From positions 172,309 to 236,308 of the forward strand of contig JAGXIU010000002.1 of the NCBI GenBank assembly GCA_024635455.1: DNA of 64,000 nt, in the 5' to 3' direction. Below are positions 596 through 44,169 of the stretch, piece after piece. The DNA is from Candidatus Saccharimonadota bacterium. Its GTDB lineage: Bacteria > Patescibacteriota > Saccharimonadia > Saccharimonadales > SLHW01. Each line of letters opens with the position of its first letter. Position 1 is the first letter of the stretch. Below the pieces are notes generated by a model. It saw nothing but the letters and a program-made list of their open reading frames with translations, ran no database searches and was not told the origin of the DNA. Made by a program: the position numbers and the translations under genes.

Positions 596-1066
596 TTAAG
601 ATGCTTCAGTCGGTAACTTATCCTTAAGCTTAGTCAGGCGTGGCAGGAAGCTTTGTGCTGCACCATCTAAGCCAAGGATCTTGAGCGCGCCGATGAGCAC
701 GTACAGTTCGTCAATGTGAGCCTGATTGATTTTTGACTCGGTTTCGACTTTTTTTATGTAATACTCGATTTTTTCTATCAGCCACTTTTCTTCACTTGGT
801 TGTATCTGGTTGGTTTGAAGTTTAGTTTGAGCATCGGTACTGACGACCTCGAGCGAACGAGCGGCGTGATCTCGCTTTTGTAGGTGCCCACGATCGATTA
901 GGTTTTTGATGTGTAGAGACACCGTGGCTATAGAGTTATAACCCATGCCGGTTTTTATCTCACGGTAGCTTGGGCTATAACCATGTTCAGTAATAAACGA
1001 TTCAATAAAGCTAAGTAGCTCTTGCTGTTTTTTGGTTGGACGAACGGTTTTGCCTGGTTCACTCAT
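596..1066 (-). CDS. LexA-like winged-helix DNA-binding protein lacking the S24 peptidase domain
   Basis: The N-terminus LLSFIESFITEHGYSPSYREIKTGMGYNSIATVSLHIKNLIDRGHL resembles the LexA N-terminal DNA-binding domain. The C-terminal 80 aa look helical, with no Ala-Gly cleavage site or Ser/Lys dyad motif. Confidence 0.6.
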   Translation of the reverse strand: MSEPGKTVRPTKKQQELLSFIESFITEHGYSPSYREIKTGMGYNSIATVSLHIKNLIDRGHLQKRDHAARSLEVVSTDAQTKLQTNQIQPSEEKWLIEKIEYYIKKVETESKINQAHIDELYVLIGALKILGLDGAAQSFLPRLTKLKDKLPTEAS

Positions 1067-1077
1067 TACATTCTCCG

Positions 1078-1578
1078 TTATTTTGAGCGTTTTTTAGGCG
1101 GACGAGTCGATAGGGTCGGCATGGCTGTTTTCCTGGCGGGGTTAATATCATGAGGCTCGGCACTCTTCTTCTTGAATACCCAGTATTTGAATAATAAATA
1201 GTTGTACACGGTAAAGAATCCAGCGCTAACAAACTGTCCAATGTAAGGAGACACGTCAGCCAGCTCGTACAAACCGCCAACAATCGCTAGGTCTATTAAA
1301 AAATTGGTGAACATGAGGCCGTAGTACTTCTCTGCAGATGCATGGATTTGCTTTTTTGACAGTCGTTTTCTACCAAAAACCCAGTAGCGCTGCAGGTAGA
1401 AGTTGACCATGACACCTAATCCATACGACAACACACGGTTTGGCCAAAACGGTACCTTAAAAACGATGTCAAACAGCGCAAAGGCGCCGTAGCCGCTCCA
1501 GAACTGGGCTCCGCCACTTATCATGTACTCAATGATGCGCTTGAGTTCTTTTTTGTATTTATATTTTAGTTTTGGCAT
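1078..1578 (-). CDS. GtrA-family membrane protein
   Basis: Four predicted TM segments. The motifs YLQRYWVFG and LFKYWVFKK are typical of GtrA-like proteins. Confidence 0.7.
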   Translation of the reverse strand: MPKLKYKYKKELKRIIEYMISGGAQFWSGYGAFALFDIVFKVPFWPNRVLSYGLGVMVNFYLQRYWVFGRKRLSKKQIHASAEKYYGLMFTNFLIDLAIVGGLYELADVSPYIGQFVSAGFFTVYNYLLFKYWVFKKKSAEPHDINPARKTAMPTLSTRPPKKRSK

Positions 1579-3249: not shown

Positions 3250-3735
3250 ATGGCAAAAACATCTGTGTCGAGTAATAAAAGTAGCGCTCCAGTAGCGAAG
3301 ATAATCATTGGCGTAATTCTTCTGGCATCTCTTGCTGGCAACGGCTTTTTACTTTGGCAATATCAAGAAAAAGAATCTGAGCTAGAAACTGCTAACCAAA
3401 CTATCGAGCTTTTTAAGAGTGACCCAGGCGCAGCTGAAGAAGCCAGCGTACAAGAATACATTGATCAGGTTGGGAGAGTATATAATTTGCCGGAAGGCGA
3501 AACGCCGAGTGTTGCCACAGTTGAGGATAAAGAATTACTTGCTGATCAGCCATTTTTTGAACGAGCCGAGAACGGGGACGTTGCGTTGATCTATCCTGAG
3601 GCTCAACTCGCAGTATTATATCGGCCGAGTACTGCTCAGATCGTCAATGTGAGCAGTCTAGAGATCGATGACAACCCTGACGCCCTAGACGTTCAAACGC
3701 CAGAAGCTGAGTCAAGCGGGCCACTAGAAGAGTAG
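3250..3735 (+). CDS. Hypothetical membrane-anchored protein
   Basis: Single N-terminal TM segment (IIIGVILLASLAGNGFLLW) and an acidic C-terminus. Confidence 0.5.
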   Translation: MAKTSVSSNKSSAPVAKIIIGVILLASLAGNGFLLWQYQEKESELETANQTIELFKSDPGAAEEASVQEYIDQVGRVYNLPEGETPSVATVEDKELLADQPFFERAENGDVALIYPEAQLAVLYRPSTAQIVNVSSLEIDDNPDALDVQTPEAESSGPLEE

Positions 3736-3797: not shown

Positions 3798-4511
3798 GTG
3801 CCCATGCTAAATACATACAGACACAATCAACGAACGAGAAAAGTCAAAGTTGGCTTACTCGTGGCTAGCTTTTTATTTGGGATAGGCGGTATATTGCTTG
3901 CTGGATTTTTTGTTTATAACGATTTGCGGAACAACCAGGCAGAAGTTGTCGAAGGAGAGGGTCGCACAGTCGCGCAAGTACTCAGCGATAGTGATGTTTA
4001 CTTTGTGCATGAGCCAGATTTCGACTTTGAGCTGCCCAGTGACTGGCGAGAGATAGATAGAGTTAACTCGCCAAACGAACAAAGCATCACCTGGCAAGCG
4101 ACACTCAAGGATGAGGATAATCGGTATTTGACGTTATATATAAATACGATTCCGCAAGATCCAGTTGTCCGACTATTACCTGTCACTGTTACAGAAAATC
4201 GTTTGCAGCGAGGACAGCTATCACCAAATTGCTCGAGCTTTACTGGTAGTGAAACTTTAGATAGGGATGAGCGCAGAAATGAACCACCAGCTCAAACTAA
4301 ATGGGCGAATACTGACTTTATATGTGATGTCGGTAGAATCGTTAATGAGAACATTATTGGCACTGGTCAATCAGGCGAACCGATAAACACCATTACGATT
4401 ACAGGCGAAGAAAGCGGCACTAATAAGTACTTCTTCTTGTATGAGGATAGAAATGTGCGGCCGAATTTTGATATTTTGTACAATGCTGTGAATACGTTTT
4501 TTGCGAAGTAA
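3798..4511 (+). CDS. Hypothetical membrane-anchored protein
   Basis: N-terminal TM segment (VGLLVASFLFGIGGILLAGFFVY). The start could be the ATG at 3804 rather than the GTG at 3798. Confidence 0.5.
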   Translation: MPMLNTYRHNQRTRKVKVGLLVASFLFGIGGILLAGFFVYNDLRNNQAEVVEGEGRTVAQVLSDSDVYFVHEPDFDFELPSDWREIDRVNSPNEQSITWQATLKDEDNRYLTLYINTIPQDPVVRLLPVTVTENRLQRGQLSPNCSSFTGSETLDRDERRNEPPAQTKWANTDFICDVGRIVNENIIGTGQSGEPINTITITGEESGTNKYFFLYEDRNVRPNFDILYNAVNTFFAK

Positions 4512-4790
4512 TTATTAAGGGTTAGAAAATAGGAAGTAGTAATTAGCGAGGCTCGTTCTCGACAGGGCGAGCTACCTTTACTTTATGATGAATAAGGTCA
4601 AGGATTGACTAAACTCGAAGGCTTCTCCGCTGATGAAATCAGTTTTTTGAAGCCCGAACAGAAGACACGGGGCTTTAAGTGGGTTGAGGTTGGGTTTGTG
4701 TGATAAATCAGTTCTATGATTGCTAAAAATACTACATCTAGTGTAGGGCTTATACGCTATACTACTAGGCATAGGCAAATTACCAATTTA

Positions 4791-4925
4791 TGCTGGAAGT
4801 AGGTGAAATTCCTACACTGTGCCGCAACGGTGAAAGTCCGATACAGCAAGAAAAGACTCCCGAGCAGGAGCAACTGTTGTCACCTTCCTGGTGTGACCGT
4901 CTATTCTGCTAAAGGAGCATAGGCG
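4791..4925 (+). promoter_or_regulatory. Candidate cobalamin (B12) riboswitch, compact class-II-like core plus expression platform
   Basis: UGCUG-GAAG-UAGG-UGAAAUU-CCUA-...-GCCGCAACGGUGAA-AGUCCGAUA-CAGCA. This contains a GGUGAAAUUCC loop, a CGCAACGGU segment and a B12-box-like AGUCCGAUAC. The 5' UGCUG (4791-4795) can pair with CAGCA (4843-4847). An AAGGAG RBS (4912-4917) lies in the downstream hairpin region. Confidence 0.5.
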
Positions 4926-4930
4926 ATACA

Positions 4931-6298
4931 GTGTTACAACTAGCAACCCATCCAGAAGTAGAAAAGTTTGAGCAGGGGCCGCGCATCGATCGGTGGCTAC
5001 TTGCAGAACAGGCCCGGCCGATTGAGTCCGATATTGCTCGAAGCCGAGCGCAAAAATTACTCGGTTCTCTCGCGGTAAATAATGTAGTTGACGTTAAGCA
5101 GGCGCAAGAAGAGACCAGTAGCAACACGACGCTTTTATTTGCAACACAGGCAGCTCGTATGGGTGATCAAGAATCACGGCATGCAGTTGAGCAGAACGTG
5201 CAGACCAATGTAGCTGAGATTTTATATAAGGCAGGACACCAAACCAGCGTATTCTTGACATATGCAGATGGCCAGCTTGCGCAATCGGGTCGCTCACTTG
5301 CCGATATACAGGCAAATACCCTTCGCTACACTACATTGAACCCATTAATGCGCCGTCGTTCAGAGCAAGAGCTTGAAAACGTGTTTTCATTTGAGGAGTT
5401 GCTTGGGTCAGGGGCGCTAGAGGATTATGACGCAGTAGTGTTCTCATTAGCGCCAAATGATGAAAAAACCAAGCGTGATTATGGGTTTTTTAGCGACACT
5501 GACACTTGCTCAATTCAGATGTTGCGTCATAGGGATGGTAGCGACGTTGAGCTACAGACTGCACTGGTAGCCGGCAAGCCATCAGCATATGCTACCCGAC
5601 ATGACTCGCAGGCAGTTGAGTATATAGCACAACAAAATGGTGCTAGCTATAGTCTAGATAGCGAGGAAGACGGTCTGCGTCAGATTTTACTTATACCAAA
5701 AACAGCTGCACCAAATGGCGTTGTCGATATCGTGGCACAATACGATTGGGCGATCGGTGGTACATTTTATGGTGAGCAACAGACACATTCGCAGCCAATA
5801 GACTACGTGGCCTACGCCGAACAGTGCGAACAGAGAAATCGTGACTTTGATGTAGTGGTCCAGCAGGTCACTGACCAGTTGCTCACTGAGGCGCATAGTT
5901 TCACCTCACCGGTACAGGCAATTAAACGGCTTCATAAGCTGACCGAACAAGCTTTGGTTACGGGCGCAATCAGCGATGAATCTATCGATGTGCGGGTATT
6001 TGGAGCAGAGTCAGCAGGTTATATAGATGCCGCTCGACTTATGAGCCAGCAAGGTGATGCAGAGAAGGCACTTGACCTACAAATGAAAGCTATTAAAACA
6101 GCAGCTTCTAGCTCGTGTCCAATGTTTAATGGTGGTGAAACCGATGGTACTACCGATAATCCGTTATCGCTTAACGGTATATTTGAAGATAAGTATGGCT
6201 CGCTAGAATTTAGGTGTAAACATGGACATAATAATAAGCGACCGAGAAATAAATTGATTGAAAAATGCCAGCATTGTGGCATCAGTGTTCGGTGTTAA
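4931..6298 (+). CDS. Hypothetical protein (455 aa) with a C-terminal zinc-ribbon-like motif
   Basis: GTG start 13 nt after AAGGAG. The C-terminus reads FRCKHGH...CQHCGISVRC. No recognisable catalytic domain. Confidence 0.6.
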   Translation: MLQLATHPEVEKFEQGPRIDRWLLAEQARPIESDIARSRAQKLLGSLAVNNVVDVKQAQEETSSNTTLLFATQAARMGDQESRHAVEQNVQTNVAEILYKAGHQTSVFLTYADGQLAQSGRSLADIQANTLRYTTLNPLMRRRSEQELENVFSFEELLGSGALEDYDAVVFSLAPNDEKTKRDYGFFSDTDTCSIQMLRHRDGSDVELQTALVAGKPSAYATRHDSQAVEYIAQQNGASYSLDSEEDGLRQILLIPKTAAPNGVVDIVAQYDWAIGGTFYGEQQTHSQPIDYVAYAEQCEQRNRDFDVVVQQVTDQLLTEAHSFTSPVQAIKRLHKLTEQALVTGAISDESIDVRVFGAESAGYIDAARLMSQQGDAEKALDLQMKAIKTAASSSCPMFNGGETDGTTDNPLSLNGIFEDKYGSLEFRCKHGHNNKRPRNKLIEKCQHCGISVRC

Positions 6299-6311
6299 AA
6301 TAGAAGCAGAA

Positions 6312-6482
6312 ATGATAGATAAGCACGACCAACAGTATAAAGAGCTCGTTGATGAACGTTCGCCAGAACTGTTTTGTGATTCCTGCGGTCATTATCCGAT
6401 TATGCCATTGCACGGCCATTTCGTGTGCCCAGAATGCAAAATGCCAACGAAGTGCTGTGAGGGAATACCGGCTGATGTCTAA
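6312..6482 (+). CDS. Small zinc-ribbon protein (56 aa; alternative start at 6258)
   Basis: CDSCGH...CPECK, i.e. two CxxC pairs. Its stop overlaps the start of the next gene (ATGTCTAA). Confidence 0.45.
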   Translation: MIDKHDQQYKELVDERSPELFCDSCGHYPIMPLHGHFVCPECKMPTKCCEGIPADV

Positions 6483-7224
6483 GGCGACGACGAGTCGTGA
6501 AAATAAGGACGCCCCGCCCCGCCATTGGAGTAGTCGTTTCTTACGTATAACGTTATGGACAATCAGCGTGTTTCTTGTGTTGCATCTTGCTGGGCAGGTG
6601 CTCACGCGGTTTTTCTTTCCAGACAGTGTGTTCTGGGATGAAGTGACCTGGCGCTTCAACGTTGATTTGGAGCTGAATGTGACAACGTGGTACGCCTCGT
6701 TTCTCGCAGCGGTGGCCTCTTTGAGCGCAGTGTTTGTAGCGTCCCAGTATCGTCATTATCGAACAGACAGACTCCCGTTGACTGTCTGGGCTTTGTTGGC
6801 AGCGGCCTTGCTTGTCGTGTCTATTGGCGAAACTGCCAGTTTTCACGAGCTGTTGCTGCAGCTGTTGCACGTGCAAGCTGAGCTTGGCACTGTGCCGTCG
6901 TATAAATCAAACGCCTGGTTGTTTGTAATTCCGGTGATTGCTCTTGGGGCTGCTGCTGGCTTGGGGCTCGTGCACCGCGCCATGCCTCACCGTACTTTTG
7001 TGCGCATTACTGTCGCTGCGTGTATCTATCTGACGGGTGCTGTCGGCGTGGAGTACATTAGCATTCCGATTAGCGATGAAAGCCTTATGTATAACTTTTT
7101 CCTGACGCCCCTAGAAGAGGGCCTTGAGATGGTAGGCATGTGGTCGGTGATACGAGCGATGTCTTTACACGTTCGTGAGGCGTTGCCGGATGTCGATAAA
7201 CAGGTACAACAACTATGGCAATAA
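6474..7224 (+). CDS. Hypothetical polytopic membrane protein (about 250 aa)
   Basis: The ORF track extends to 6349, but that N-terminal extension overlaps the zinc-ribbon ORF. The ATG at 6474 (MSKATTSRENK...) precedes about six hydrophobic segments. Confidence 0.55.
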
Positions 7225-7829
7225 ATCAGCGTATTGGTATCTTTGCTGGAAGCTTTGATCCGATTCATAAGGGTCATATTATGTGCGCACAACGCGCTAT
7301 GGAGCAGCTCGGTTTGCAACGTGTGCTCTTTGTTGTTGAGCCACGGCCACGTCGTAAACAGGGAGTTAAGGCGTTTGAGCATCGTAGTGCAATGGTGCAA
7401 CGTGCGATTGCTGATTTCGAAGGCTTTCAACATATCTTGATAGACGACCCGTACTGCACTACCACCGAGACACTACCGATGTTACGTGAGCGTTTTCAGG
7501 GCAGTGAACTATATGTACTGATGGGGGATGACGTAGCCGAGCACATAGCTCAATGGCCACAAGTTACCGAACTCCTCAGCAATGTTCAGCTTGCCGTTAT
7601 ATTGCGCACACTAAAAAGAAATCAGCTTGAGCAGCGCTTAGAGAAGCTGGCTACTGTGACCAATCAGAAGCCTCGAGTGCACATCATAGACGGAATAGGC
7701 GCACCAATTAGTTCAAGTAAAATACGAGCGCAACTAAAGCACGAGGGCACCTCAGATATGGTACAGCCACACGTCTTAGATTATATTCGAAAGCAAAATC
7801 TCTATGGATCAAGCGGCTTAGCTTCGTAG
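7215..7829 (+). CDS. nadD: Nicotinate-nucleotide adenylyltransferase
   Basis: GIFAGSFDPIHKGHI (the (H/T)xGH motif) and the C-terminal ISSSKIR motif. Confidence 0.85.
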   Translation: MAINQRIGIFAGSFDPIHKGHIMCAQRAMEQLGLQRVLFVVEPRPRRKQGVKAFEHRSAMVQRAIADFEGFQHILIDDPYCTTTETLPMLRERFQGSELYVLMGDDVAEHIAQWPQVTELLSNVQLAVILRTLKRNQLEQRLEKLATVTNQKPRVHIIDGIGAPISSSKIRAQLKHEGTSDMVQPHVLDYIRKQNLYGSSGLAS

Positions 7830-30269: not shown

Positions 30270-30345
30270 GGGGGTGTAGCTCAGGGGTTAGAGCAGTCGG
30301 CTCATAACCGATTGGTCGCTGGTTCAAATCCAGCCACCCCCACCA
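30270..30345 (+). tRNA. tRNA with CAU anticodon (elongator Met or Ile2/lysidine type), CCA encoded
   Basis: Cloverleaf read by eye: acceptor GGGGGTG/CACCCCC, D arm GCTC/GAGC, anticodon arm GTCGG-CTCATAA-CCGAT, T arm GCTGG-TTCAAAT-CCAGC. The variable and T-arm sequence resembles E. coli tRNA-Ile2 as I recall it. Confidence 0.9.
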
Positions 30346-31895
30346 GTTTGGAATGACGGTAACGCAACTAATGACGCAACTGGCTCTTTAAAGGAGTAAT
30401 GCGTCATTTTTTGTTGGTCAAAATAGAGTTTCAAAAACAAATTACTGACAATGATGTCCTTTTGAACCACATCGGCAGCTTTGAGCTTTTGAGCCATTTC
30501 TTTTAGGGTAGCCTTAAACTCATCTTTATCAATGGCAGGCAAGGTACTGCGCTCAATACTCCTCTGATATTTCTCAATGAGTTGCTCTTGCTGTTGTACG
30601 ATTTGCGATGCCTCGCCAATCTGCTCGGTGATAGTTTGCAGGGCGCGTTCGTGCTTGACGATTGATAGGCTCGGTGACAGTTCTGCTATTTTCTTTTCGT
30701 ACCCAGCTTTGGTTGTTCTTGCTCTGCTAAGGTCTGAACGCAATTTTGTTTTAGCTGTATCGCTATAAGACTTAATCTCTTTGAGGTACTCATCGTATGC
30801 ACTATCAGGCAGGCTCAGTAGCTTTTCTTTTATTACTCTATCAATCTCGCTAAACACCAGCTTGCCGCGAATACTCTTGTAGCCCCTTTCTCTCGGACAA
30901 TCCTTGTTTAAGCAAGCGTAGTTGAGGCGATGAACTTTATCCCTGCCTCGCGTGCGTCCGACTTGCATCGGTTTATCAAACTTACATACATCGCAATAAA
31001 CCATATAGCGAAGTGGCAAGATTGGCTTACGATTTTTCTTGCCAGCACGCCGCCTAGTTCTGCTAAGCTCTTGGACCATAAAGAATGTATCTCGGTCAAT
31101 CATTGGCTCAAATGGTACTGGCGCTGTTATCAAGTCAATGGTCTGACCAGCTTGGTTCAGCTCACCATAATAAAAGGTGTCTTTGAATAAGTTGCTCAGC
31201 GTACTGTCAGCCATCGTAAATGTAGTATGACCGCCGCGTTTTGCTATGAACTTCTGATAGCCCTGAGAGTTTATGTAGTCGCAAATCTCTTGCTGGTTTA
31301 CGCCCTTAGCCCGCATATGCCACGCCGTCTGTATGATAGTGAAGTTATCGCCGTCTTTGCGGTAGATGCCCTCAGTGTCGCGTATATAGCCGTGTTTTGG
31401 CGTGCCACCTGATTTATAGTCGCGCAGGTTGCCCCTTACGCCGCGTGTAACCTTACTAGATAAGTCATCGGAGTAGTGCTTGCTAAATACAAACAACATA
31501 CCCAAAAGCATTTTGCCGTTTGCATCGTTTGAAAACTGATGCGAAACAAAACGAATATCTTTAATAACATCCGTATCAAGCATATGAATAATTTTGCCCG
31601 CCTCAACCATATTTCTGGCAAGTCGGTCAGGATGCCAAGCAATAATACCGTCAAACTCTTTGAGCCTGATACGCTTTAGCATATTAGTAAACTCAGGGCG
31701 ATTGTTTGGTTTCTTTGCCGATTTTTGCTCGGATATAGTATCAACGATATTTAGCCCTAAGCGTTTAGCTAGGTCTCTACAATCCCGCTCTTGGTCTTTG
31801 ATAGACCTAATCTGCCTGCCCTCATCCTCTGTGGACTTACGCAGGTACAGCACATATTTAAGCGTTCTTAGGTCTAGCTCTTGCTCATCGTACAT
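30324..31895 (-). CDS. Large serine recombinase (integrase)
   Basis: N-terminal resolvase catalytic domain (YLRKSTEDEGRQIRSIKDQ...HPDRLARN), recombinase domain, Cys-rich zinc ribbon (CDVC...CLNKDC) and a coiled-coil C-terminus. The last codons are encoded by the complement of the tRNA T-arm and acceptor. Confidence 0.85.
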   Translation of the reverse strand: MYDEQELDLRTLKYVLYLRKSTEDEGRQIRSIKDQERDCRDLAKRLGLNIVDTISEQKSAKKPNNRPEFTNMLKRIRLKEFDGIIAWHPDRLARNMVEAGKIIHMLDTDVIKDIRFVSHQFSNDANGKMLLGMLFVFSKHYSDDLSSKVTRGVRGNLRDYKSGGTPKHGYIRDTEGIYRKDGDNFTIIQTAWHMRAKGVNQQEICDYINSQGYQKFIAKRGGHTTFTMADSTLSNLFKDTFYYGELNQAGQTIDLITAPVPFEPMIDRDTFFMVQELSRTRRRAGKKNRKPILPLRYMVYCDVCKFDKPMQVGRTRGRDKVHRLNYACLNKDCPRERGYKSIRGKLVFSEIDRVIKEKLLSLPDSAYDEYLKEIKSYSDTAKTKLRSDLSRARTTKAGYEKKIAELSPSLSIVKHERALQTITEQIGEASQIVQQQEQLIEKYQRSIERSTLPAIDKDEFKATLKEMAQKLKAADVVQKDIIVSNLFLKLYFDQQKMTHYSFKEPVASLVALPSFQTGGGGWI

Positions 31896-31914
31896 ATGCC
31901 AATTCTACCATTGA

Positions 31915-32061
31915 CTATAAGATGATGCGCCCACCGTTATTATCGTCTATGGACTGTTCGTTAACTTTGGCTTTTGGACTTGATGTATCTATTTCTTGCA
32001 AAACTTTAATTAGCTCTACAAAACTGCCTACTTCTTGCTCTTGTTGAGAAACGGTACTCAC
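31915..32061 (-). CDS. Small acidic ORF (48 aa) directly upstream of the recombinase; possible regulator or directionality factor
   Basis: GTG start 7 nt after GGGAG. Not in the ORF track because it is under 60 aa. Function is a guess from position only. Confidence 0.25.
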   Translation of the reverse strand: MSTVSQQEQEVGSFVELIKVLQEIDTSSPKAKVNEQSIDDNNGGRIIL

Positions 32062-32305
32062 GTTGATACTCCCAAGCCATTCGCATACAAAAGTACACTA
32101 TGGCATCGTTAGCCACGCTCGTAAGTCCGTTTTTTGCCGAGGTCGTATCTCGTTTTACTTACATTTCATGTATTGTGCTGCCCCAGACTTTTTAGCGGTC
32201 CTGTCTCCGTATTTGGCTGCTACATGAAATACATAGATTGTTAATAGTGTTTTTATTATAACTCAACTAAATTATTCCCGCGTGTAAGCGGCAACAAACC
32301 TTGCC

Positions 32306-32464
32306 CTATGTGTGCCAGTAGTGGTTTGGGGATACGGTGTAATAAATTGCCGGTATCCACAGCAGTAGCCAGCCGAAAAGAACATGCTTTACGATACTAT
32401 GACCCTTTTGCTCGCGTACATAGTTTGATTTGGGTTGTTTTGGTGCGTCCACTTTTTCCTCCAT
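32306..32464 (-). CDS. Small membrane protein (52 aa)
   Basis: MEEKVDAPK... followed by the hydrophobic stretch HVLFGWLLLWIPAIYY. The start overlaps the stop of the upstream gene. Confidence 0.4.
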   Translation of the reverse strand: MEEKVDAPKQPKSNYVREQKGHSIVKHVLFGWLLLWIPAIYYTVSPNHYWHT

Positions 32465-32465
32465 T

Positions 32466-32888
32466 TTAGTTAGTCGGTTGATGCGCAATGGTTAGCTTTA
32501 CGCTGTCGCCAGTCTGTACTAGGTCGCCTACTACAAATGCGTCTACCGATTGTCGGTCATCCGCCTTGTTTGGGTCTAGTTTCTCAAACATATCTGAGGC
32601 TTTGCCATTTATGTCGGTCAGTGCTTGCTTTTCAAAATCAGCGTCAACGGTATAGCCTTTACCCTTTAGCTCCTTGTAAACTACTAGCCCCTCATTGCCT
32701 TTGTAGTCGGCTGCGTTGAGCATTGGCAAGGTAGCAGTATTCTTATTGCTATCTGTCGTCTGTGAGCTATTAGGGTTGCTAGTGGTGTCAGTCTTGTTGC
32801 CTGATTGACCGGCTGCGCCAATCGCGCCGAGTACAACAACTACGACTAACCAAAACCACCACTTCTTAAATATCTTCTTGTCTTTCAC
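32466..32888 (-). CDS. Membrane-anchored hypothetical protein (140 aa)
   Basis: GTG at 32888 lies 8 nt after GGAGG. TM segment WWFWLVVVVVLGAIGAAG, then a Thr/Ser/Asn linker and a small globular domain. The longer track ORF (to 33053) lacks an RBS. Confidence 0.5.
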   Translation of the reverse strand: MKDKKIFKKWWFWLVVVVVLGAIGAAGQSGNKTDTTSNPNSSQTTDSNKNTATLPMLNAADYKGNEGLVVYKELKGKGYTVDADFEKQALTDINGKASDMFEKLDPNKADDRQSVDAFVVGDLVQTGDSVKLTIAHQPTN

Positions 32889-33249
32889 TATATGGACCTC
32901 CGTTTTAATTATTGTTAAGCGGTGTCCATAAAAAAGGACGACCCGCAGGTCGTCTAAAACCAGTACCAGCTTACGCCGAATACTTTTACGCGAGTCGCCC
33001 ATTTTTTGGCATAAACACGCAAAAATGCGATTGATGATACTGGTTTTAGACAATACTTATTATACTGTTTTGGCTAGAGTAGCGCCAGCTGTTAGACGAC
33101 TGATTTTTATTGCGTTTTATCCAAAATACTTGGTATTTCAATGAGAGAGACAAATATTCGGTACTCCCTATTTTTGCGAAAAAAACGCTGGCGGAATTGC
33201 TCCGACAAATAGGGTATTTAGACAGCGGAATGTCACTTTAACAGAGGTA

Positions 33250-33265
33250 GGGGGGCATGCCCCCC
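33250..33265. repeat. Perfect 16-bp GC palindrome GGGGGGCATGCCCCCC
   Basis: Read directly. It lies 17 nt downstream of the HNH gene stop and may act as a terminator stem. Confidence 0.7.
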
Positions 33266-33281
33266 GCCTTGTTTGTGTAAA

Positions 33282-34079
33282 TTAAGAGCTTATTGGAAAA
33301 CGTATCATCAGTGATTTATTGAACATTAATTCAAGTTTTATAGTTGCCGTTTGGTCATACTTATATCGCGTAAGCCACGGCGTAATATCAGCGCAATTAT
33401 TCAACCCTAGAGCTTTTGTCTCATCATTTCCAGAATAATAAAATGCGACTAGCTCGTTTTCTATACCAGCATAAGCCTGGGTGATGTATCTATCGCCGAT
33501 GTTCATTAGTGCGCCCACTGTGCCGAAGTAGGCACTATTGCCTAAATGTAGGCTCATATATAGGGCAAAATCATCAGTATTTGGCAGGTAGTCCTTATCA
33601 AGAATGGCTTTCCTAATTTCGGGGTTTCTGTCAGTTAGCCCAGGGTGTTCAACGGAGCAAAACGAAACCAGCATACGCTTAGCGATATTGAGGGGCTTAA
33701 TATCCTGTAGCACCATAGTTACAATTTCACCCTCAAGGTAACTCTCCATAGTTTGACCCTTAGGGATTGTGATTGAGGAGGTGATAATGTGGTGTACACC
33801 ATTATGAAACCGCGCAAACTCTTTATCATAAAGCGCGCCCGACAACTCATTGCACTCTTTACATAGGGTATGCTCAGCCAAACCATTCTGCTTTATTTTG
33901 CCGCGTGGCTTATAGTCGTTACCATCCTCGTCTTTGTGAAGTGTCTTTATTAGCTCATCGCCGCTATACAGTGTAATCTTTGCGCCGCCGCCAGCTGCGC
34001 GGGGTATGTAGTGTTCTTGCGAGAGCTGCTTTTCCTCACCGCAAATCCTGCATTTTCCGTATACTTTTTTCTTAGCCAT
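33282..34079 (-). CDS. HNH-family nuclease-like protein (PtuB-like) with an uncharacterised C-terminal domain
   Basis: A beta-beta-alpha-Me pattern, CRICGEEKQLSQEHYIPRAAGGG ... LCKECNELSG: two CxxC pairs flanking the His and Asn. About 170 aa follow with no recognisable motif. Confidence 0.65.
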   Translation of the reverse strand: MAKKKVYGKCRICGEEKQLSQEHYIPRAAGGGAKITLYSGDELIKTLHKDEDGNDYKPRGKIKQNGLAEHTLCKECNELSGALYDKEFARFHNGVHHIITSSITIPKGQTMESYLEGEIVTMVLQDIKPLNIAKRMLVSFCSVEHPGLTDRNPEIRKAILDKDYLPNTDDFALYMSLHLGNSAYFGTVGALMNIGDRYITQAYAGIENELVAFYYSGNDETKALGLNNCADITPWLTRYKYDQTATIKLELMFNKSLMIRFPISS

Positions 34080-34082
34080 ACC

Positions 34083-35579
34083 TCAAAGACCCGCGTCAAT
34101 CAAAGCCAACATTTCTGTGATTGATTGCCGAAACTCTGTGTCCGTGTAATCAGCATTTTGTGTATTTTCGGGGTGGTGGATTTTATTGCGGATGTAGGTA
34201 TAGAGCGTTGTGTTATATGCAGGCTGCGGTGTACCTGCGTTAACCCTAATCCAGCTTTTACTCTGCGAGATGCTTTTTGAGACAAAGTAGTTTTCTAAAT
34301 CTGCCTCCCGATAATTGCCTGTCTGTTCTTGAATAAAGCCATATAGTTCGTTATGCAGCTCAACAGTTGGTAAATCGTAGGCACTAAAGTTAACCTCGCC
34401 CCACGATGGGCTCCAAGGAAAATGCCCAAAACCACTGTCGTTAGCATCCGTTACAACTATCTCGTCATTGTTATCGCGTTTAAAAAGAAAAAGTCCCGGA
34501 CTGCTCGTAATGGCGTCTTTAAATATATATGGCGAGTGCGTAGATAAGAATATCTGTTTGTCTTTGCTTTCCTCAAGCAGTAAGCGCAATAGCTCTTTCT
34601 GCGCTTTAGGATGCAGATGTGCCTCAGGCTCATCAATGAGATATACGATTTTCCCACTTGAGGCATTGCCAATATTACGGAGCATTAGCAGGGCTATAAT
34701 CATCTCAACACCAGAACCAAGGTCTTTGGACAAAATTTGTAGTAATGAGGCGTCCTTTCGCAAGGCAAGCATACCTGTTCCGAACGGCTGTAAGTAATTG
34801 ATAATGTCTAGTTTAAGGTTCTTGTATTTTTCGTTGTCCAAGAAATCCGCAAGGTCGTCAGCAACTTTCTGACCAGCGCCGGATTGCGCGGCGTCTTTAG
34901 CTTGCTGGAAGTAGTCGCCTGTAAGGCTATCAATAATTGCCTGTTTCTTGGTCGCATCATTATTAATGGTTTTAACAAAGCGCCAATTCAAATCATCACA
35001 AATGCGCTCAAAAGTTGTTTTATAGTTACCTTGTGTGAGTTGTCGGGTACGGTTCTTGTCAAAGTAAAAAATATTAAGCTCATCACCATCTATATTTTCG
35101 GCAGAAAACATCCGAACATAATCAATGATGGGCTTGCCACTATCCTGACCACTTGCGTTCAGATAATTAGCTGCGGTGTTATTGAAGACAGATGACACCT
35201 GAAAAGGGGTGGATAATAGCTTGCCAGGCGATTTACTACCTCGGGGCTTTGCGGTAAATGTAATACCGTCAGCCTCATACGAGCAACCCCTATAAACAGG
35301 TGGCATTTTGCACTTGAAGTTAGCGCTGCTTTTATAGGACACCGATAGCTCTTGTTCCATATCCTTAAAGTCACTAATATCCATAGTGTTGTTGGTTGAG
35401 TACGAGCTTTGTGTCAGAAAGTTTATAGCCTCAAGCACTGTTGTTTTGCCATTGCCGTTTTCACCTATAAGTATATTGAGACCACTACCCGGCGTAGTGC
35501 CGTCAGGCACATTAAACTCACCAATGGTTTCATCTGCGAAACATCTTAAGTTTTTGATTGTGAGGTTTTTGATAAACAT
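34083..35579 (-). CDS. ABC/OLD-type (AAA_15/AAA_21-like) ATPase, PtuA-like, with a C-terminal RNxxxH tail
   Basis: Walker A GENGNGKTTVLEAINF, signature-like LGSGVEMII, Walker B VYLIDEPEAHLHP, H-loop LSTHSPYIF. The C-terminal 120 aa contain YIRNKIHHPEN. The stop lies 4 nt before the HNH gene start. Confidence 0.8.
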   Translation of the reverse strand: MFIKNLTIKNLRCFADETIGEFNVPDGTTPGSGLNILIGENGNGKTTVLEAINFLTQSSYSTNNTMDISDFKDMEQELSVSYKSSANFKCKMPPVYRGCSYEADGITFTAKPRGSKSPGKLLSTPFQVSSVFNNTAANYLNASGQDSGKPIIDYVRMFSAENIDGDELNIFYFDKNRTRQLTQGNYKTTFERICDDLNWRFVKTINNDATKKQAIIDSLTGDYFQQAKDAAQSGAGQKVADDLADFLDNEKYKNLKLDIINYLQPFGTGMLALRKDASLLQILSKDLGSGVEMIIALLMLRNIGNASSGKIVYLIDEPEAHLHPKAQKELLRLLLEESKDKQIFLSTHSPYIFKDAITSSPGLFLFKRDNNDEIVVTDANDSGFGHFPWSPSWGEVNFSAYDLPTVELHNELYGFIQEQTGNYREADLENYFVSKSISQSKSWIRVNAGTPQPAYNTTLYTYIRNKIHHPENTQNADYTDTEFRQSITEMLALIDAGL

Positions 35580-35975
35580 CTGTATTTATTGTACTTGATG
35601 TTGCCCTGTTTCAAACGCTTTCGTCTTATACTCCTAGCCACCTTAGAGTACATAGCTAACCTCAGTAAATGCACTAGCTCTGACCCTACCCATACAACGG
35701 CGTGTACTATCCCAGCCCTCTGCTATGTCTGCTAGAATATCCTCTAGTGGGCGAGTTTCAAATAAGGTTACTCCATCCCCACCACGTCGGAATGTACTCT
35801 GGCCAAATATCAAAAAAGCGCAATCAAGTGGCGCTTTTTTTATTTGGCCTGCATAATTCCTCCTCTTCCGCTTTATATAAAGCATTTTATAAAGCGGGTG
35901 TCGCGCGGGTTATTTGTTTGGTGGATGATACTCTATATCGGATTTGAACCAGGGAATTGCCTAGTATTGGATAAA

Positions 35976-36008
35976 ATAAACCCGACAGACTATAGTGTGT
36001 CGGGTTTA
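35976..36008. repeat. Conserved palindromic hairpin element, copy 3
   Basis: ATAAACCCGACAGACTATAGTGTGTCGGGTTTA, located 27 nt downstream of the minus-strand pyrF-like gene, at the right edge of island A. Confidence 0.8.
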
Positions 36009-39618: not shown

Positions 39619-39693
39619 CGCGGGGTGGAGCAGCGGCAGCTCGCGTGGCTCATAACCACGAGGTCGCAGGTTCGAGTCCTGCCCCCGCTACCA
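39619..39693 (+). tRNA. Initiator-type tRNA-fMet (CAU), CCA encoded
   Basis: CGCGGGGTGGAGCAGC... is nearly identical at the 5' end to E. coli tRNA-fMet. There is a C1:U72 mismatch at the top of the acceptor stem. T arm is GCAGG-TTCGAGT-CCTGC. Confidence 0.9.
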
Positions 39694-39698
39694 AGAAA
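39676..39698 (+). repeat. att-like direct repeat, copy 1 (tRNA-fMet 3' end, GTCCTGCCCCCGCTACCAAGAAA)
   Basis: Identical 23-mer at 39882-39904; 14-17 nt of it recur at 45052-45068. Confidence 0.8.
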
Positions 39699-39701
39699 AA
39701 C

Positions 39702-39727
39702 GACTCACCGAATGGTGGGTCTTTTTT
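39702..39727 (+). terminator. Rho-independent terminator after tRNA-fMet
   Basis: GACTCACC-gaat-GGTGGGTC followed by T6. Confidence 0.7.
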
Positions 39728-39881
39728 CTTGTTGGACAGCCCTCGAGCCTGCGACGCAGATTTTGCCTAAGCAAAATATGCTAGTCGCAGCGTTCGGTGG
39801 AATGAAGCCACGCGCAGGAGCTGGCTCCGAGCATGGCTGAGTGGAGATGAAGCAGAGCGATATAATCGCCCGGCCTGAATT

Positions 39882-39904
39882 GTCCTGCCCCCGCTACCAA
39901 GAAA
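39882..39904 (+). repeat. att-like direct repeat, copy 2
   Basis: Exact 23-nt copy of the tRNA-fMet 3' end plus 5 nt of flank, followed by its own hairpin and T-run (GACTTTTCAGACGCTGGAAGGTCTTTTTT). Confidence 0.8.
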
Positions 39905-40328
39905 GACTTTTCAGACGCTGGAAGGTCTTTTTTAGTGGGTACGTATCTGTAGAGTGGACTCATTTCACTGGTTCCAAACTTACGTGTCTCTGGGGCGTAC
40001 ACCAAACCCTTTGGAGTCAACACACTTTGGAACCATTATACCTTAATTGCTCACGAGCTATAAGGTGTAAATTATGTATGAATTCTCGCAGTTGGGTGTC
40101 TGAGTACTTATCAGAACTCTTGCCGAGAACTCGTCTTGCTTTGCTTTTAGGGACGAACTGTTCCATAAAAAACCGCTCCTTGTAGATAAATTAATTAAAT
40201 AATTTATCGATTTCGGAACGGTATGACCCAGGCTTTACCCCTTTGGTCAGCTCTTGGCTCGATGCGCCACCTTAGCGTGTTTATCTAATAACTATAATTA
40301 TACCATATTTATTGATATAATTCATTTA

Positions 40329-41081
40329 ATGAAGTCAGCAAAAAAGAAGAAGGTCTCTACTCGTAAGAGATTAAACTCTAGACTCAAGCAAATGAATAAG
40401 ACTAAGCATCTTGCCGTAGCTGTAGCTTTAATTGTACTTTTTAGTGTCGGTATAGTATTCGGCTTAGATAAAATCCGAGAAAACAACCCTGTTACAGTAC
40501 AGAGTACAGAGATTAACGATAGTGTGCCCGAGAATGAAGTAGATATTACTTTTAACACTCCATGGCCCCCTACAGAAGCACAAAAAGCTTGTTATGTTCG
40601 TCTTGAGGAAGAACGTCTAAGAGGCGTAATTTTAGAAACTGTGTACTGCGGAGGTACTGGAGAGTATATTGCCACAGATTCAAATGGTGAACAATACATC
40701 TACAAGACCGAACAAGCTACTCCGGTAGAAAGTAGCCCTCAAAAAGATACTCAGTGTTACGAAAATGTAATTCCTCACGCGACAAAAGAAATTCCTGCTG
40801 ATTGGCTTTATGTTGGTGAGACTCTAGTCACCATTACTGGATATGACGGAGTTGAGACAATATGCATTAAAAATGGGCTCAAAGATGTTGTTTATAGCAC
40901 TCCAGTGATAGACGCACAGAAGTACATTGGTACTAAGATTCGTGAAATTCCACAAACACCGGAGACATACTCATACGAAGAGGCCTTGTCAGATGCTAAA
41001 TATGCATGTAGAGGCAATCAACCAGATTCAACTGATATGACTGATTGCATAAGAAAAAAAATGAATGAGTACGGGTTCTAA
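40329..41081 (+). CDS. Hypothetical membrane-anchored protein
   Basis: Lys-rich N-terminus, TM segment LAVAVALIVLFSVGIVFG, Cys-containing extracytoplasmic domain. I prefer the ATG at 40329 over the track start at 40254. Confidence 0.5.
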   Translation: MKSAKKKKVSTRKRLNSRLKQMNKTKHLAVAVALIVLFSVGIVFGLDKIRENNPVTVQSTEINDSVPENEVDITFNTPWPPTEAQKACYVRLEEERLRGVILETVYCGGTGEYIATDSNGEQYIYKTEQATPVESSPQKDTQCYENVIPHATKEIPADWLYVGETLVTITGYDGVETICIKNGLKDVVYSTPVIDAQKYIGTKIREIPQTPETYSYEEALSDAKYACRGNQPDSTDMTDCIRKKMNEYGF

Positions 41082-41357
41082 CACCTGAAGCCTACGTCTA
41101 GGTGTAGTTTATTCTTATATAAAGGTCCTATGGGAACCCTCAAATACTAGGGGGATGGGATAAATATATCTATCTATTCATGTTATTAATTCTCTACTTT
41201 ATTTATACGTGCTCCCTTATTGTGTGAGAGTAAACAAGTTGGTAAGCAATCTGATGCCGTGACTATCTTTTTGTCCATATAAGCATAAGGCATACCTTTT
41301 TAATCTTGTGTTAGGTATAATTTTACTAATAATTCAAAAAAAGGATTTTGTAAAATA

Positions 41358-42203
41358 ATGGCTGGCAGACATTTTTCAACGCACGAAAGCAACAGTGATG
41401 TCATTGATGCCTTGCATGATGGTGTACCCAGTTGGATGAAGCGTTCAATAGATAGCTGGATACGCGAGGAGATAGCAAAAGGCAGTGGATATGCTGGAGT
41501 GGTTGCAAACGTCAATACCATAGAGAGGCTAGAGAGGCTTTTACGTGTGAGTTTGATTGGAACAGATAGCCTATACAAGATGCTAGGAAGTTTATTTAGT
41601 CGTTTAGATGTCAATGAAGACCTCAAGCTTGATGTTGTTGACGGATTACTGCAGATTGGAACTCCTTTAACAAATAACGTCAGAGAACTGGATAATATTC
41701 TTGAGCAATCTGGCTCTAAGTGGAAAGTTGCAACAAACGAGGGTACACCTAAACTAGAAGAGAGGGTAGATGATTCTGTAATAGTCGCAATGGATGATCT
41801 AGCGACACAGACTGGAGACGCCAGTAAGTACATGAGGTTAGCTTGGAATGAAGCATTTGGGCGTAACCCGAACCCTTCGTCAGCATATAGCAATGTCGTT
41901 AAGGCTGTTGAGGCTGCTACTTGGGGAACTGTCACTCCAAATAATAGCAGGGCTACGTTGGGAACAATTATTGGGGAACTAAAAAATAATCCTGAAAATT
42001 ACAAAATTTCTATTAAGGAAGATAGTCAATACAAAGGTATAAAAACAATCACACAAGACTTGTCTTTAATTTGGAGAGGGCAAACTGACAGACACGGTAC
42101 TTCAAACCCTGTCGCACCAACCCAAGAAGCTGCAGAACAAGCAATATTTTCAGGCTTATCTACATGTCAGCAATTTACTAGAGGTCTTATTTCACACACC
42201 TAG
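41358..42203 (+). CDS. Hypothetical cytoplasmic protein (281 aa), island cargo
   Basis: Intact ORF with no TM segment. It contains WRGQTDRHG (an Rx5H spacing), but there is no firm domain assignment. Confidence 0.5.
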   Translation: MAGRHFSTHESNSDVIDALHDGVPSWMKRSIDSWIREEIAKGSGYAGVVANVNTIERLERLLRVSLIGTDSLYKMLGSLFSRLDVNEDLKLDVVDGLLQIGTPLTNNVRELDNILEQSGSKWKVATNEGTPKLEERVDDSVIVAMDDLATQTGDASKYMRLAWNEAFGRNPNPSSAYSNVVKAVEAATWGTVTPNNSRATLGTIIGELKNNPENYKISIKEDSQYKGIKTITQDLSLIWRGQTDRHGTSNPVAPTQEAAEQAIFSGLSTCQQFTRGLISHT

Positions 42204-42312
42204 AAAGCTAATTTAGGCAACTCAGAGCAGTCTTTCCAACGTTACAATTTATATACTAAGAAAAGCCCTACTAAAGTCTTGTAACTTAAAGCTTTGTGAA
42301 ATTTGGTATGAT

Positions 42313-42666
42313 TTGTATATGAGTAATGTAAATGAACTACAGAAACTAGTAACTGAGTTTAGAGATGCGCGTGACTGGAAACAGTTTCACAACCCTAAAG
42401 ACATGGCTATATCACTTGTTCTAGAAGCTTCTGAGTTTCTAGAACACTACCAATGGAAATCAGAAGAAGAAATAAATAAGCACATGCTTGAAAATAAGTC
42501 TCAACTTGCTGACGAACTTGCAGATGTTATGTATTGGGTGCTATTACTGGCTAATGATTTAAACATTGACTTGACTAAGCAGTTCAAGTCTAAACTAGAG
42601 GAGAACGCTGTTAAATACCCTGTTAATAAAGCTAAGGGCAACCATAAAAAGTACACGGAGTTATAA
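42313..42666 (+). CDS. DCTPP1/RS21-C6-like MazG-family nucleotide pyrophosphohydrolase
   Basis: FRDARDWKQFHNPKDMAISLVLEASEFLEHYQW and LADELADVMYWVLLLA helices. The stop overlaps the next start (TAATG). Confidence 0.8.
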   Translation: MYMSNVNELQKLVTEFRDARDWKQFHNPKDMAISLVLEASEFLEHYQWKSEEEINKHMLENKSQLADELADVMYWVLLLANDLNIDLTKQFKSKLEENAVKYPVNKAKGNHKKYTEL

Positions 42667-43636: not shown

Positions 43637-43668
43637 ATGGGTTTGCGATAGCTTGGTTTTGTCGCTCA

Positions 43669-44169
43669 TTAGTTGTCCGTAGCGTCATACACCGTATTAC
43701 CGCTTATTGCTAAATGCTTTACCACTACCTTGTCTCCCTCTGTAGCTACGTCACAAACAAACAATATACTGCTATCGGTGGTCTTATCCTTGCCATTCCA
43801 CTGTAACGATTTTGTACCGTCGCCCATATCAGTGAAGTAGGGCCTATATGAAAAAGTTACAATGCTAGTATTTTCTAGGTTTATGTAGTTTTGTAAAAAG
43901 TTAGCATCTTGGCATACGTTCTCGGCGTCAGGTTGACTAATCTCTTTAGGCTTGGGTTGCTCTTGAGCCTGTGGTTTTGGTTCTTCGACAGTTTTTTGCT
44001 CGGTCTTGGTAGTCTCCTTTGGATTATTGTCGCCGCTACCAGTAATAACACCAACAATGCCTGAAATGATAGCTAAGGCGATAAAGCCAATAATCACAAC
44101 ACCCATTAAACCTATGGTTTTTTCTACCTTGCTCATTTCGTTCCAGTTTTTACGCTTTTGTTTAGCCAT
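43669..44169 (-). CDS. Hypothetical membrane-anchored protein
   Basis: TM segment IGLMGVVIIGFIALAIISGIVGVI followed by a Lys/Glu/Pro-rich linker. Confidence 0.5.
   Translation of the reverse strand: MAKQKRKNWNEMSKVEKTIGLMGVVIIGFIALAIISGIVGVITGSGDNNPKETTKTEQKTVEEPKPQAQEQPKPKEISQPDAENVCQDANFLQNYINLENTSIVTFSYRPYFTDMGDGTKSLQWNGKDKTTDSSILFVCDVATEGDKVVVKHLAISGNTVYDATDN

Follow-up and report, generated by a model that had tools for sequence, protein, structure and literature searches.

A cobalamin riboswitch of Saccharibacteria and the uncharacterised protein family that accompanies it

Cobalamin riboswitches and the systems they control

Cobalamin (vitamin B12) riboswitches nearly always repress genes for B12 transport, for B12 synthesis or salvage, or for B12-independent isozymes. 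The RNA considered here lies on the plus strand of a 64-kb stretch of the genome of a Candidatus Saccharimonadota bacterium (contig JAGXIU010000002.1, positions 172,309 to 236,308), called the window below and used for all coordinates unless another locus is named. It precedes a gene, designated A, whose product belongs to an unassigned family. Saccharibacteria and the other Patescibacteria make up a large and mostly uncultured part of bacterial diversity, with minimal genomes and a dependence on hosts for cofactors, the Saccharibacteria being tiny and epibiotic. To our knowledge, it is not established how they sense, obtain or forgo B12, and a full-text literature search brought up no work on cobalamin riboswitches in Saccharibacteria, Patescibacteria or the candidate phyla radiation, nor on this locus or the use of B12 by the group. 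The presence of a riboswitch is in itself a label of function, and here it marks a family of protein dark matter as B12-responsive. The regulon is a standard one for a B12 riboswitch; what is new is the effector, an uncharacterised and lineage-specific family.

The window was compared with homologous loci from GTDB genomes (L001-L014), other assemblies (L015-L023) and JGI metagenomes (L025-L044), a set that is partly redundant (L036, for instance, is the same contig as L010). Genomes were scanned for A loci with an 11-sequence alignment as query.

The closest described RNAs are those of the Rfam family RF01689, AdoCbl-II (adenosylcobalamin class II, formerly "AdoCbl variant"), typified by the env8 HyCbl riboswitch. 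The window RNA likewise matches the full model, has the four-way P3-P6 core and is devoid of a P6 extension. Its P13 hairpin is likewise placed for a possible kissing contact between loops L5 and L13, and the RNA is located in the leader that precedes the regulated gene. In contrast, it does not form the outer helix of the Rfam model, where non-canonical pairs are flagged, and P13 does not itself hold the ribosome site as in class II but mimics the Shine-Dalgarno or terminator arm of a separate hairpin. The regulated genes also differ from those of known class-II switches in being of unassigned family. The classical riboswitches of RF00174, such as those of E. coli btuB and of T. tengcongensis (AdoCbl), belong to the same clan (CL00101) and have the same core. 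Indeed, the leaders of L005, L010 and L011 score as RF00174, and large P6 insertions of the RF00174 kind occur in L001-L003, L022 and L023, whereas the window aptamer is entirely without a P6 extension.

Known B12-related proteins offer partial parallels to the genes behind the switch, namely A and two that accompany it in the window, B and C. The transporters BtuFCD, ECF-CbrT and BtuM recall the locus through the B12 repression expected in an auxotroph and the presence of a membrane protein, C, in the operon; however, no sequence or fold match to them was found, C is dispensable and the conserved gene A encodes a soluble protein. With the isozymes MetE, NrdDG and NrdEF, A has in common that it is a soluble Cys/Zn protein, the sole conserved target of its switch and presumably repressed by B12, but it has neither homology nor a common fold with them, and no B12-dependent counterpart was identified. 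The adenosyltransferases CobA, PduO and EutT, cytosolic corrinoid processors of several independent origins that are often encoded in B12-repressed operons, provide a functional analogy only: A has no match to the Pfam families Cob_adeno_trans or CobA, no PDB fold match, and an hhalign probability of 0.2% with EutT, a family that carries a Cys-rich metal site and for which we know of no solved structure. The putative cobalt transporter CbtA/CbtB, which is under B12-riboswitch control, likewise joins a small metal-binding peptide to a membrane protein of five to seven helices with conserved charged residues. B and C nevertheless do not match Pfam CbtA or CbtB, and these organisms are not expected to make B12 and hence would have no need for cobalt.

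Identification and architecture of the aptamer

A scan of the whole window with Rfam cmscan at curated thresholds returned only three transfer RNAs (tRNAs) and one riboswitch, the latter being RF01689 at 4779-4854 (plus strand) with 42.5 bits against a gathering score of 36.5 (E = 7.9e-7). The match extends over model positions 1-81 of 81, that is, the full model. Four helices compose the aptamer: P3 (4791-4795/4844-4848), P4 (4799-4803/4811-4815, loop UGAAAUU), P5 (4818-4820/4824-4826) and P6 (4828-4830/4838-4840, loop UGAAAGU). The apical insert of P6 is reduced to GAA, so the peripheral extension whose absence defines class II is missing. The L4 element GGUGAAAUUCC (loop GUGAAAUUC), the segment GCCGCAACGGU and the AGUCCGA element all agree with the RF01689 consensus, and the corresponding sequences (GUGAAAUUC-like in L4) are invariant or near-invariant over 17-21 leaders.

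An earlier note, drawn up by a model from the letters of the window, had proposed a candidate cobalamin riboswitch at this place. Each sequence element that it listed was found at its position, and the covariance-model search that it recommended gave the match above the gathering score, to which the covariation between leaders described below is added. By these features the RNA can be placed in a known riboswitch family and, with its class-II aptamer lacking a P6 extension and the P13 hairpin that follows, the segment 4779-4870 has the look of a functional cobalamin riboswitch. That it is a genuine one appears practically certain.

A match of the flavin mononucleotide (FMN) riboswitch model, at 19 bits against a gathering score of 66, was set aside as noise due to a common GGUGAAAUUCC-like sequence. 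A 40-amino-acid open reading frame (ORF) at 4790-4912 was also rejected as a gene, being the aptamer read as protein. The same misreading is seen in gene calls elsewhere, as 67-amino-acid ORFs at L022 1354-1557 and L023 496-699, and the N-terminal extension of the A homologue P0017 (MLELGENPTLCRNG...) is a translated riboswitch; such entries of 40-67 amino acids, and such extensions, are artefacts of public annotation.

Conservation of the riboswitch with gene A

Seventeen orthologous leaders were aligned (A4) and scored for helices P3, P4, P5 and P6 and the downstream hairpin. Paired states fill 96.4% of the cells, and 11 of the 20 pairs have changed on both sides. None of 500 shuffles reached the covariation score of the real alignment. 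Sliding the 3' partner by 1-3 columns lowers pairing to 26-49%. The double changes affect three of five pairs in P3, four of five in P4 and one of three in P6, P5 being invariant. At Rfam gathering thresholds, only four of the 14 leaders collected first are recognised (L007 as AdoCbl-II; L005, L010 and L011 as RF00174), but all 14 contain the core GCUGGAA...CUGUGCCGCAAC(G/U)GU...AG(U/C)C(C/A)GA(U/C)AC(A/G)G(C/U).

A covariance model, R1, was built from A4 and run against every locus. It gave one strong match (52-119 bits) in each A-carrying source (n = 23, six of them outside model building), a single match in the 64-kb window, one in each of the 16 metagenome loci with upstream DNA retained, and none in L017, which lacks gene A. 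Thus, the switch stands before A in every A locus with upstream DNA, representing 39 sources with some redundancy, even for the most divergent members of the family, P0032 (26% identity) and the 372-amino-acid P0033 in the same syntenic slot. The earlier note had suggested asking whether homologues of the three proteins A, B and C sit behind cobalamin riboswitches; for A this holds without exception in all loci examined. Across the phylum, the RNA and gene A are obligately paired, and there is hardly any doubt that A is the conserved target of the riboswitch. It is also the only target of a cobalamin switch seen in the window and in the DNA of the loci examined.

The part of the aptamer that varies most is the apical insert of P6, from 3 to about 174 nucleotides (nt) among orthologues. 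It is GAA in the window and TAA in L007, and 14-174 nt long in the orthologues that are not of this minimal type. Even relatives with a 78%-identical A carry an insert of about 100 nt (L022, about 1400-1510), and it attains 173-174 nt in L001 (4726-4898) and L003 (1628-1801), where the window has only 4828-4840. Aptamer class is consequently not fixed within the orthologous group. One and the same orthologous riboswitch appears to alternate between class-II-like and class-I-like architectures, possibly with a shift in ligand selectivity, and such an exchange within one leader bears on how ligand selectivity evolves.

The expression platform

Downstream of the aptamer, the hairpin CUCC-CGAGCA-GGAG (4857-4870, plus strand) has a stem of 4 base pairs, three of which covary, and a near-invariant loop; its position matches that of P13 in cobalamin riboswitches. 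The loop, L13, is CGAGCA (4861-4866) and its candidate kissing partner is L5, GCCG (4821-4824), which pairs with the CG(A)GC of L13 given one bulged A, so that an L5-L13 contact may be inferred. Next come a spacer hairpin predicted by folding, GUCAC-CUUCCUGGU-GUGAC (4879-4897, plus strand), whose stem is retained in L022 through a C-to-U change (GUUAC/GUGAC), and a sequestor hairpin predicted by ViennaRNA, CGUCUAU...AUAGGCG (4898-4925, plus strand). The latter encloses both the pyrimidine switch sequence UUCUGCU (4904-4910) and the Shine-Dalgarno sequence AAGGAG (4912-4917, plus strand), located 5' of the GTG start at 4931. The two hairpins noticed earlier between aptamer and start codon (4857-4870 and 4879-4897), together with the AAGGAG site, are accordingly present.

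When the segment 4848-4945 is folded freely with ViennaRNA, the minimum free energy (MFE) is -25.5 kcal/mol and AGCAGGA (4863-4869), the 3' half of P13, pairs with UUCUGCU (4904-4910). Enforcing P13 raises the MFE to -24.3 kcal/mol, and the hairpin 4898-4925 then closes over AAGGAG. The two predicted folds, nearly isoenergetic and mutually exclusive, are what a switch requires.

A similar device is found in the sister leaders. The (C)GAGCAGG(A) of the P13 loop and 3' strand recurs downstream as the 3' arm of a second hairpin with the 5' arm (Y)CCUGCU(C). In L006, L009, L014 and L021, this GAGCAGG hairpin is followed by a U-run abutting the AUG. Related terminator hairpins with diverged arms and a U-run stand before the AUG in L019, L007, L008, L012 and L005, while in L001, L002 and L004 the second hairpin encloses the Shine-Dalgarno sequence and has no U-run. 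The hairpins with U-runs look like intrinsic terminators in which the 3' arm doubles as ribosome-binding site. The comparison of leaders shows that a three-part expression platform is conserved.

In the mechanism proposed for the window, bound cobalamin would lock P13, probably through the kissing contact of L5 GCCG with L13 CG(A)GC. As AGCAGGA, on the 3' side of P13, is a near copy of the downstream Shine-Dalgarno or terminator arm, locking P13 would free UUCUGCU and let the hairpin 4898-4925 close over AAGGAG; translation of A would then fall, together with that of the translationally coupled B, C and nadD. In the absence of B12, AGCAGGA would pair with UUCUGCU and leave the ribosome site largely open. 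In sister genomes, the same three-part logic would drive an intrinsic terminator adjoining the AUG. A B12-dependent OFF switch, the classical logic and one that would hold family-wide, is therefore regarded as probable, with two reservations. L5 and L13 are both invariant, hence covariation cannot test their contact, and in the free fold of the window leader the UCC of P13 also pairs with the GGA of the Shine-Dalgarno sequence. Since three Shine-Dalgarno bases are paired in that fold, the OFF direction is less certain for this leader, which may show an ON-type or more complex behaviour.

Gene A and its possible role

Gene A (4931-6298, plus strand, GTG start) encodes a protein of 455 amino acids with alpha/beta and helical domains, an invariant SSCP motif and a basic zinc ribbon of the C/H type. 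It has no transmembrane-like segment and no signal peptide, in agreement with its earlier description as a soluble protein ending in a C/H zinc ribbon. The body is acidic (isoelectric point (pI) 4.7) and the C-terminal ribbon basic (pI 9.4). A word-indexed search found 33 relatives, while 507 cluster representatives came out of an exhaustive profile search at E<=1e-3, 326 of them at E<=1e-30; the family thus has at least 507 clusters, formed at 50% identity. All those that are named are a "hypothetical protein" of Saccharibacteria, Saccharimonadales or "Patescibacteria group".

An AlphaFold2 model built with the family alignment is confident (pLDDT, the predicted local distance difference test score, 86; pTM, the predicted template modelling score, 0.78). 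It comprises an alpha/beta domain (about 20-290), a helical domain (292-390), a disordered linker and a beta-ribbon. Over 175 members, conservation of at least 95% is observed for E96, K100, Q118, N129, R143, E147, N150, S172, Q196, D225, D272, Y292, C299, R369, C396 and C429, with C396, part of the SSCP motif, conserved at 100%. The ribbon, C429-x2-H432...C446-x2-C449, forms beta strands in the model, and two invariant Cys are located outside it. Such conservation points to an enzyme, or to a pocket that binds a polar ligand. The C-terminus exists in two forms: a short one (...CxxCGxSVRC, the window type) and a long one that has a CPxC...DPCA...CxDC ribbon and a GNGG motif and ends in charged low-complexity sequence followed by a short hydrophobic tail (...LALASA-like). 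Hydrophobic tails of the latter kind (...GSLALASA, ...GGLALGA, ...KIAVAA, ...FLLAA) were noted in P0012, P0014, P0017, P0018, P0020, P0025-P0029 and P0031. They resemble ssrA-type C-terminal degradation tags and might mean that the protein is removed by proteolysis on top of the switch-off at the RNA level.

Neither Pfam, NCBIfam, PHROGs nor PADLOC gave A a match above threshold, and a Pfam scan of the 32 members of the family alignment (A1) gave no consistent match. A profile search of the PDB with A1 returned zinc-ribbon noise only, with weak eL43/L37ae-like matches at E 0.014-0.05. The earlier note had found A, B and C unlike BtuBCDF, BtuM, ECF-CbrT, MetE and NrdAB; the searches agree, none of the three matching these or any other Pfam, NCBIfam or PDB entry. 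It seems fairly probable that A founds a Saccharibacteria-wide family, with no solved structure close to its fold and a B12-related function achieved by new means. These could be a non-homologous corrinoid-processing enzyme or chaperone (e.g., an adenosyltransferase or dealkylase) or a new B12-independent bypass.

That A has a B12-related role of some kind is very probable. As to its nature, A would, with some reserve, probably be a cytosolic, metal-binding enzyme or a ligand-binding protein. The reading tentatively placed first is intracellular corrinoid handling, that is, processing, adenosylation or a chaperone function. A would then act on or with imported corrinoid in the cell, so that repression of its synthesis by the end product would make sense. 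The rubredoxin-like ribbon B and the membrane protein C would be helpers specific to certain lineages. Three unrelated adenosyltransferase families exist already, and a further unrelated corrinoid-processing family would therefore not be unprecedented; that A is specifically a new adenosyltransferase or processing enzyme is nonetheless unlikely. Corrinoid handling is ranked slightly above a B12-free bypass, as it needs fewer genes in a minimal genome and fits end-product repression.

The bypass reading, possible and only slightly weaker, holds that A is a B12-independent substitute made when B12 is scarce, as metE or nrdDG are elsewhere. Examples would be a route to deoxyribonucleotides when a class II ribonucleotide reductase cannot work, or a B12-free enzyme modifying nucleic acids. 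Repression by B12 is the general pattern of B12-independent isozymes; in its conserved Cys and its zinc site, A has the look of a soluble enzyme, as do MetE and NrdD; its basic eL43-like ribbon suggests a nucleic-acid substrate; and A is the sole gene always behind the switch, with a transporter never co-encoded. However, genomes of about 1 Mb would have to keep a B12 enzyme, its substitute and a B12 importer, a costly redundancy, and A is without sequence or fold likeness to known isozymes. Nor was a B12-dependent counterpart identified in the window or the loci examined.

Several results also weigh against corrinoid handling. A resembles no known cobalamin-binding or -processing protein in the Pfam, PDB fold and EutT comparisons. 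Comparing the A model with PDB and BFVD by Foldseek gave nothing at E<=0.001 (best PDB E = 0.04, TM-score about 0.1), the hhalign match of A1 with E. coli EutT covered just 17 columns at the probability given above, and the motif DxHxxG, looked for by eye, is absent from A. The basic ribbon with its weak eL43-like matches (E about 0.01-0.05) would suit a nucleic-acid-binding protein equally well. Neither a B12-dependent enzyme, the fact that would count most, nor a B12 transporter was demonstrated from the window and loci; in the window, no B12-dependent enzyme was evident among ORFs of >=430 amino acids, shorter ORFs having been partly scanned. Finally, the probable co-transcription of nadD, an essential gene, with a presumably B12-repressed one lacks an explanation. 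Taken together, the account given here, that is, a riboswitch with A as target, OFF logic and a function of A put forward as a ranked guess, is on balance to be favoured. If true, it would add a new class of enzyme or chaperone to cobalamin metabolism, or a new way to live without B12. Universal pairing in the loci examined, a family of at least 507 clusters and a confident model without relatives make A a defined target for biochemistry and genetics, the latter being feasible now that Saccharibacteria strains are tractable. The switch-A pair is thus a concrete lead to the B12 dealings of Saccharibacteria, a group whose cofactor biology is poorly understood.

Genes B, C and nadD

In the window, A is followed by gene B (6312-6482, plus strand), gene C (6475-7224, plus strand) and nadD (7215-7829, plus strand). 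B encodes a zinc-ribbon or rubredoxin-like peptide of 56 amino acids (CxxCG...HGH..CPxC...CCEG), represented by 48 clusters with 57-85% identity and having only sub-threshold Pfam matches, to Zn_Ribbon_TF and YjdM. Both B and the C-terminus of A display the two-knuckle zinc-ribbon pattern in their sequences. C encodes a polytopic membrane protein of 249 amino acids with 5-7 hydrophobic helices, an accessory member of the operon; these sizes agree with the double-CxxC peptide of 56 amino acids and the polytopic protein of about 250 previously reported. A structure prediction for C, which the earlier note had recommended, yielded a helical membrane bundle of 7-8 helices (pLDDT 76) with no fold match in the PDB: the best Foldseek hits were generic helical bundles (E = 0.75), and none was to BtuM, ECF S-components or BtuC. 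C has 11 homologues in all, in which E66, E119, H124, E125, E193, E214, E215, E218 and H232 are invariant. Like B, it found nothing above threshold in Pfam, NCBIfam, PHROGs or PADLOC, its Acyl_transf_3 match being sub-threshold (21.3 bits vs a cut-off of 31). nadD, for nicotinate-nucleotide adenylyltransferase, is identified by TIGR00482 (121 bits vs a cut-off of 112.45) and PF01467 (E = 1.4e-19).

The genes are tightly packed, with +13 nt between A and B, -8 nt between B and C and -10 nt between C and nadD, and the gene after nadD converges from the opposite strand. The nadD start overlaps the C stop, so that nadD is most likely carried by the same transcript, and A-B-C-nadD very probably form one transcription unit of which nadD is the last gene. 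Thus, nadD is indeed downstream as first described, but as a probable member of the unit instead of a mere neighbour. The overlap of nadD with the stop codon of the preceding riboswitch-controlled gene recurs, at 7215-7224 in the window, 7433-7442 in L001, 2818-2827 in L002 and 6404-6407 in L011; nadD lies within 20 nt of the preceding gene in L005, L029, L037, L043 and L044. In about two-thirds of the loci it directly follows A, B or C on the same strand, often overlapping. An essential gene of nicotinamide adenine dinucleotide (NAD) synthesis is in this way apparently co-transcribed with a B12-repressed gene, which would imply an internal promoter or NadD levels that respond to B12.

Operon make-up was surveyed by phmmer of all ORFs in all loci, about 40, and the neighbours of 44 loci were viewed. 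The order is [switch]-A-(B)-(C)-(nadD), then a convergent dsbA or Na+/H+ exchanger gene. A always stands behind the switch, B occurs in about one-third of the loci and C in only five of about 40 (the window, L001, L002, L004 and L018). A-B-nadD without C is the arrangement in L022, L023 and L025, the closest relatives, whose A is 78% identical. Lineages with the long form of A carry the switch and A alone, A with nadD or, occasionally, A-B-nadD (L012), and C is absent from them. In the 44 Saccharibacteria loci, only B, C and nadD were ever found to share the operon, with no transporter and no cob/cbi, nrd, metE or metH gene. B also exists by itself in L017 (6001-6183, 60 amino acids), directly after a LexA_DNA_bind-like gene and with a TATACT box of its own, without A or a riboswitch; its role is hence not confined to the B12-controlled operon. 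With C missing from 78%-identical relatives and B found alone, the three-gene system is not a conserved unit. The conserved module consists of the riboswitch and A.

These facts bear on the suggestion of the earlier note that the three proteins are a new system of corrinoid acquisition or handling. In its uptake version, C would be the permease and A and B its cytoplasmic partners. Most cobalamin riboswitches of B12 auxotrophs do control transport, C spans the membrane several times and has invariant charged residues within its helices, and the close spacing of A and B and the overlaps of B, C and nadD in the window would suit a joint function. Against this stand the rarity of C, its absence from the closest relatives and from all long-form lineages, and the nature of its matches, limited to a weak one to Acyl_transf_3. 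A, being soluble and without signal peptide or transmembrane segment, cannot by itself be an uptake system. The cytosolic location of A, the dispensability of C and the lack of a co-encoded transporter therefore argue against uptake, which is judged improbable, while corrinoid handling is retained among the readings. The interpretation of the earlier note is in this sense supported in part.

The promoter-proximal block

A block of about 45 nt located 5' of the aptamer (window 4715-4768) is kept in about 28 loci of very divergent genomes, for instance at 3520-3590 in L004 and 4650-4716 in L006. It consists of an A-rich stretch, then TACTACAT-N-TAGYG or CACACCAYACATGTAG with the palindrome CTACATGTAG, then TGCTAYACT or TGCTACTAT, which resemble an extended -10. 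In the window, the palindrome is represented by the near-palindrome CTACATCTAG (4732-4741, plus strand), where sister loci have the perfect CTACATGTAG. Situated at about -35, it is a candidate regulator-binding site and occurs once in the 64-kb window; no TTGACA-like -35 element was found in the conserved block. The -10-like hexamer TATACT (4758-4763, plus strand) is conserved in position across loci, sister loci having TGCTACACT or TGCTACTAT, an extended -10, and GCTAYACTACTAG is unique within the window. A generic sigma-70 scan of the window did not call the TATACT box, but from its placement it may be taken as the -10, with transcription starting near 4770. The block suggests a dedicated protein regulator working alongside the riboswitch, and a 150-amino-acid protein with LexA_DNA_bind as its only domain, syntenic with the locus, is the obvious candidate.

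An additional regulator of this kind also figures in another explanation, according to which B12 is an environmental or host cue tuning a function unrelated to B12, related instead to the envelope or to NAD. The palindromic element conserved at the promoter, the frequent position of nadD directly downstream, the conserved synteny Bac_transf - glycosyltransferase - Wzy - GtrA - LexA_DNA_bind-like - UppP - [switch-A] and the precedent of B12 riboswitches that indirectly control non-B12 genes, e.g., in eut regulation, would all be in line with it. Such cases are rare, however, nadD is missing from the locus in about one-third of the lineages while the switch-A pair persists, and synteny in small genomes is often conserved without functional coupling, so this explanation is put no higher than uptake. 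As for a cobalamin-riboswitch fold retuned to another ligand (for example a different corrinoid, or a metabolite of some other kind that is connected with A or NadD), the absence of anything recognisably B12-related in the regulon and the extreme variability of the P6 region, which influences selectivity, might hint at it, but all Rfam consensus core positions are kept and invariant and we know of no retuned cobalamin aptamer, which makes it very improbable.

Other features of the window

The wider neighbourhood of the locus (Bac_transf, glycosyltransferases, Wzy_C, UppP) is a cluster for envelope polysaccharide. The pair formed by GtrA and the LexA_DNA_bind-like gene lies upstream of the locus and on the same strand in most Saccharibacteria, as compared with L015, L016, L018 and L019, and is inverted in the window (596-1578, minus strand). 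There, uppP and two unannotated membrane-anchored ORFs (3250-3735 and 3798-4511) stand between the inverted pair and the switch.

Further along, a tRNA-Met (30270-30345) adjoins a gene for a large serine recombinase (30324-31895, minus strand), after which come genes for an HNH_5 protein (33282-34079) and for an ATPase of the AAA_15/AAA_21 type (34083-35579). In this stretch the GC skew is reversed and the GC content lower, and a mobile or defence element has probably integrated in the region 30270-36000. A second tRNA-Met has its 3' end (39676-39727), with a terminator-like tail, repeated 206 nt downstream at 39882-39933 with 79% identity, the whole repeat region being 39619-39933. About 6 kb beyond it, from 40000 to 46000, have a GC fraction of 0.39-0.41 as against about 0.46, and the repeat with the low-GC stretch may represent the remnant of an att site and an island. 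The anticodon is CAT in all three tRNAs of the window.

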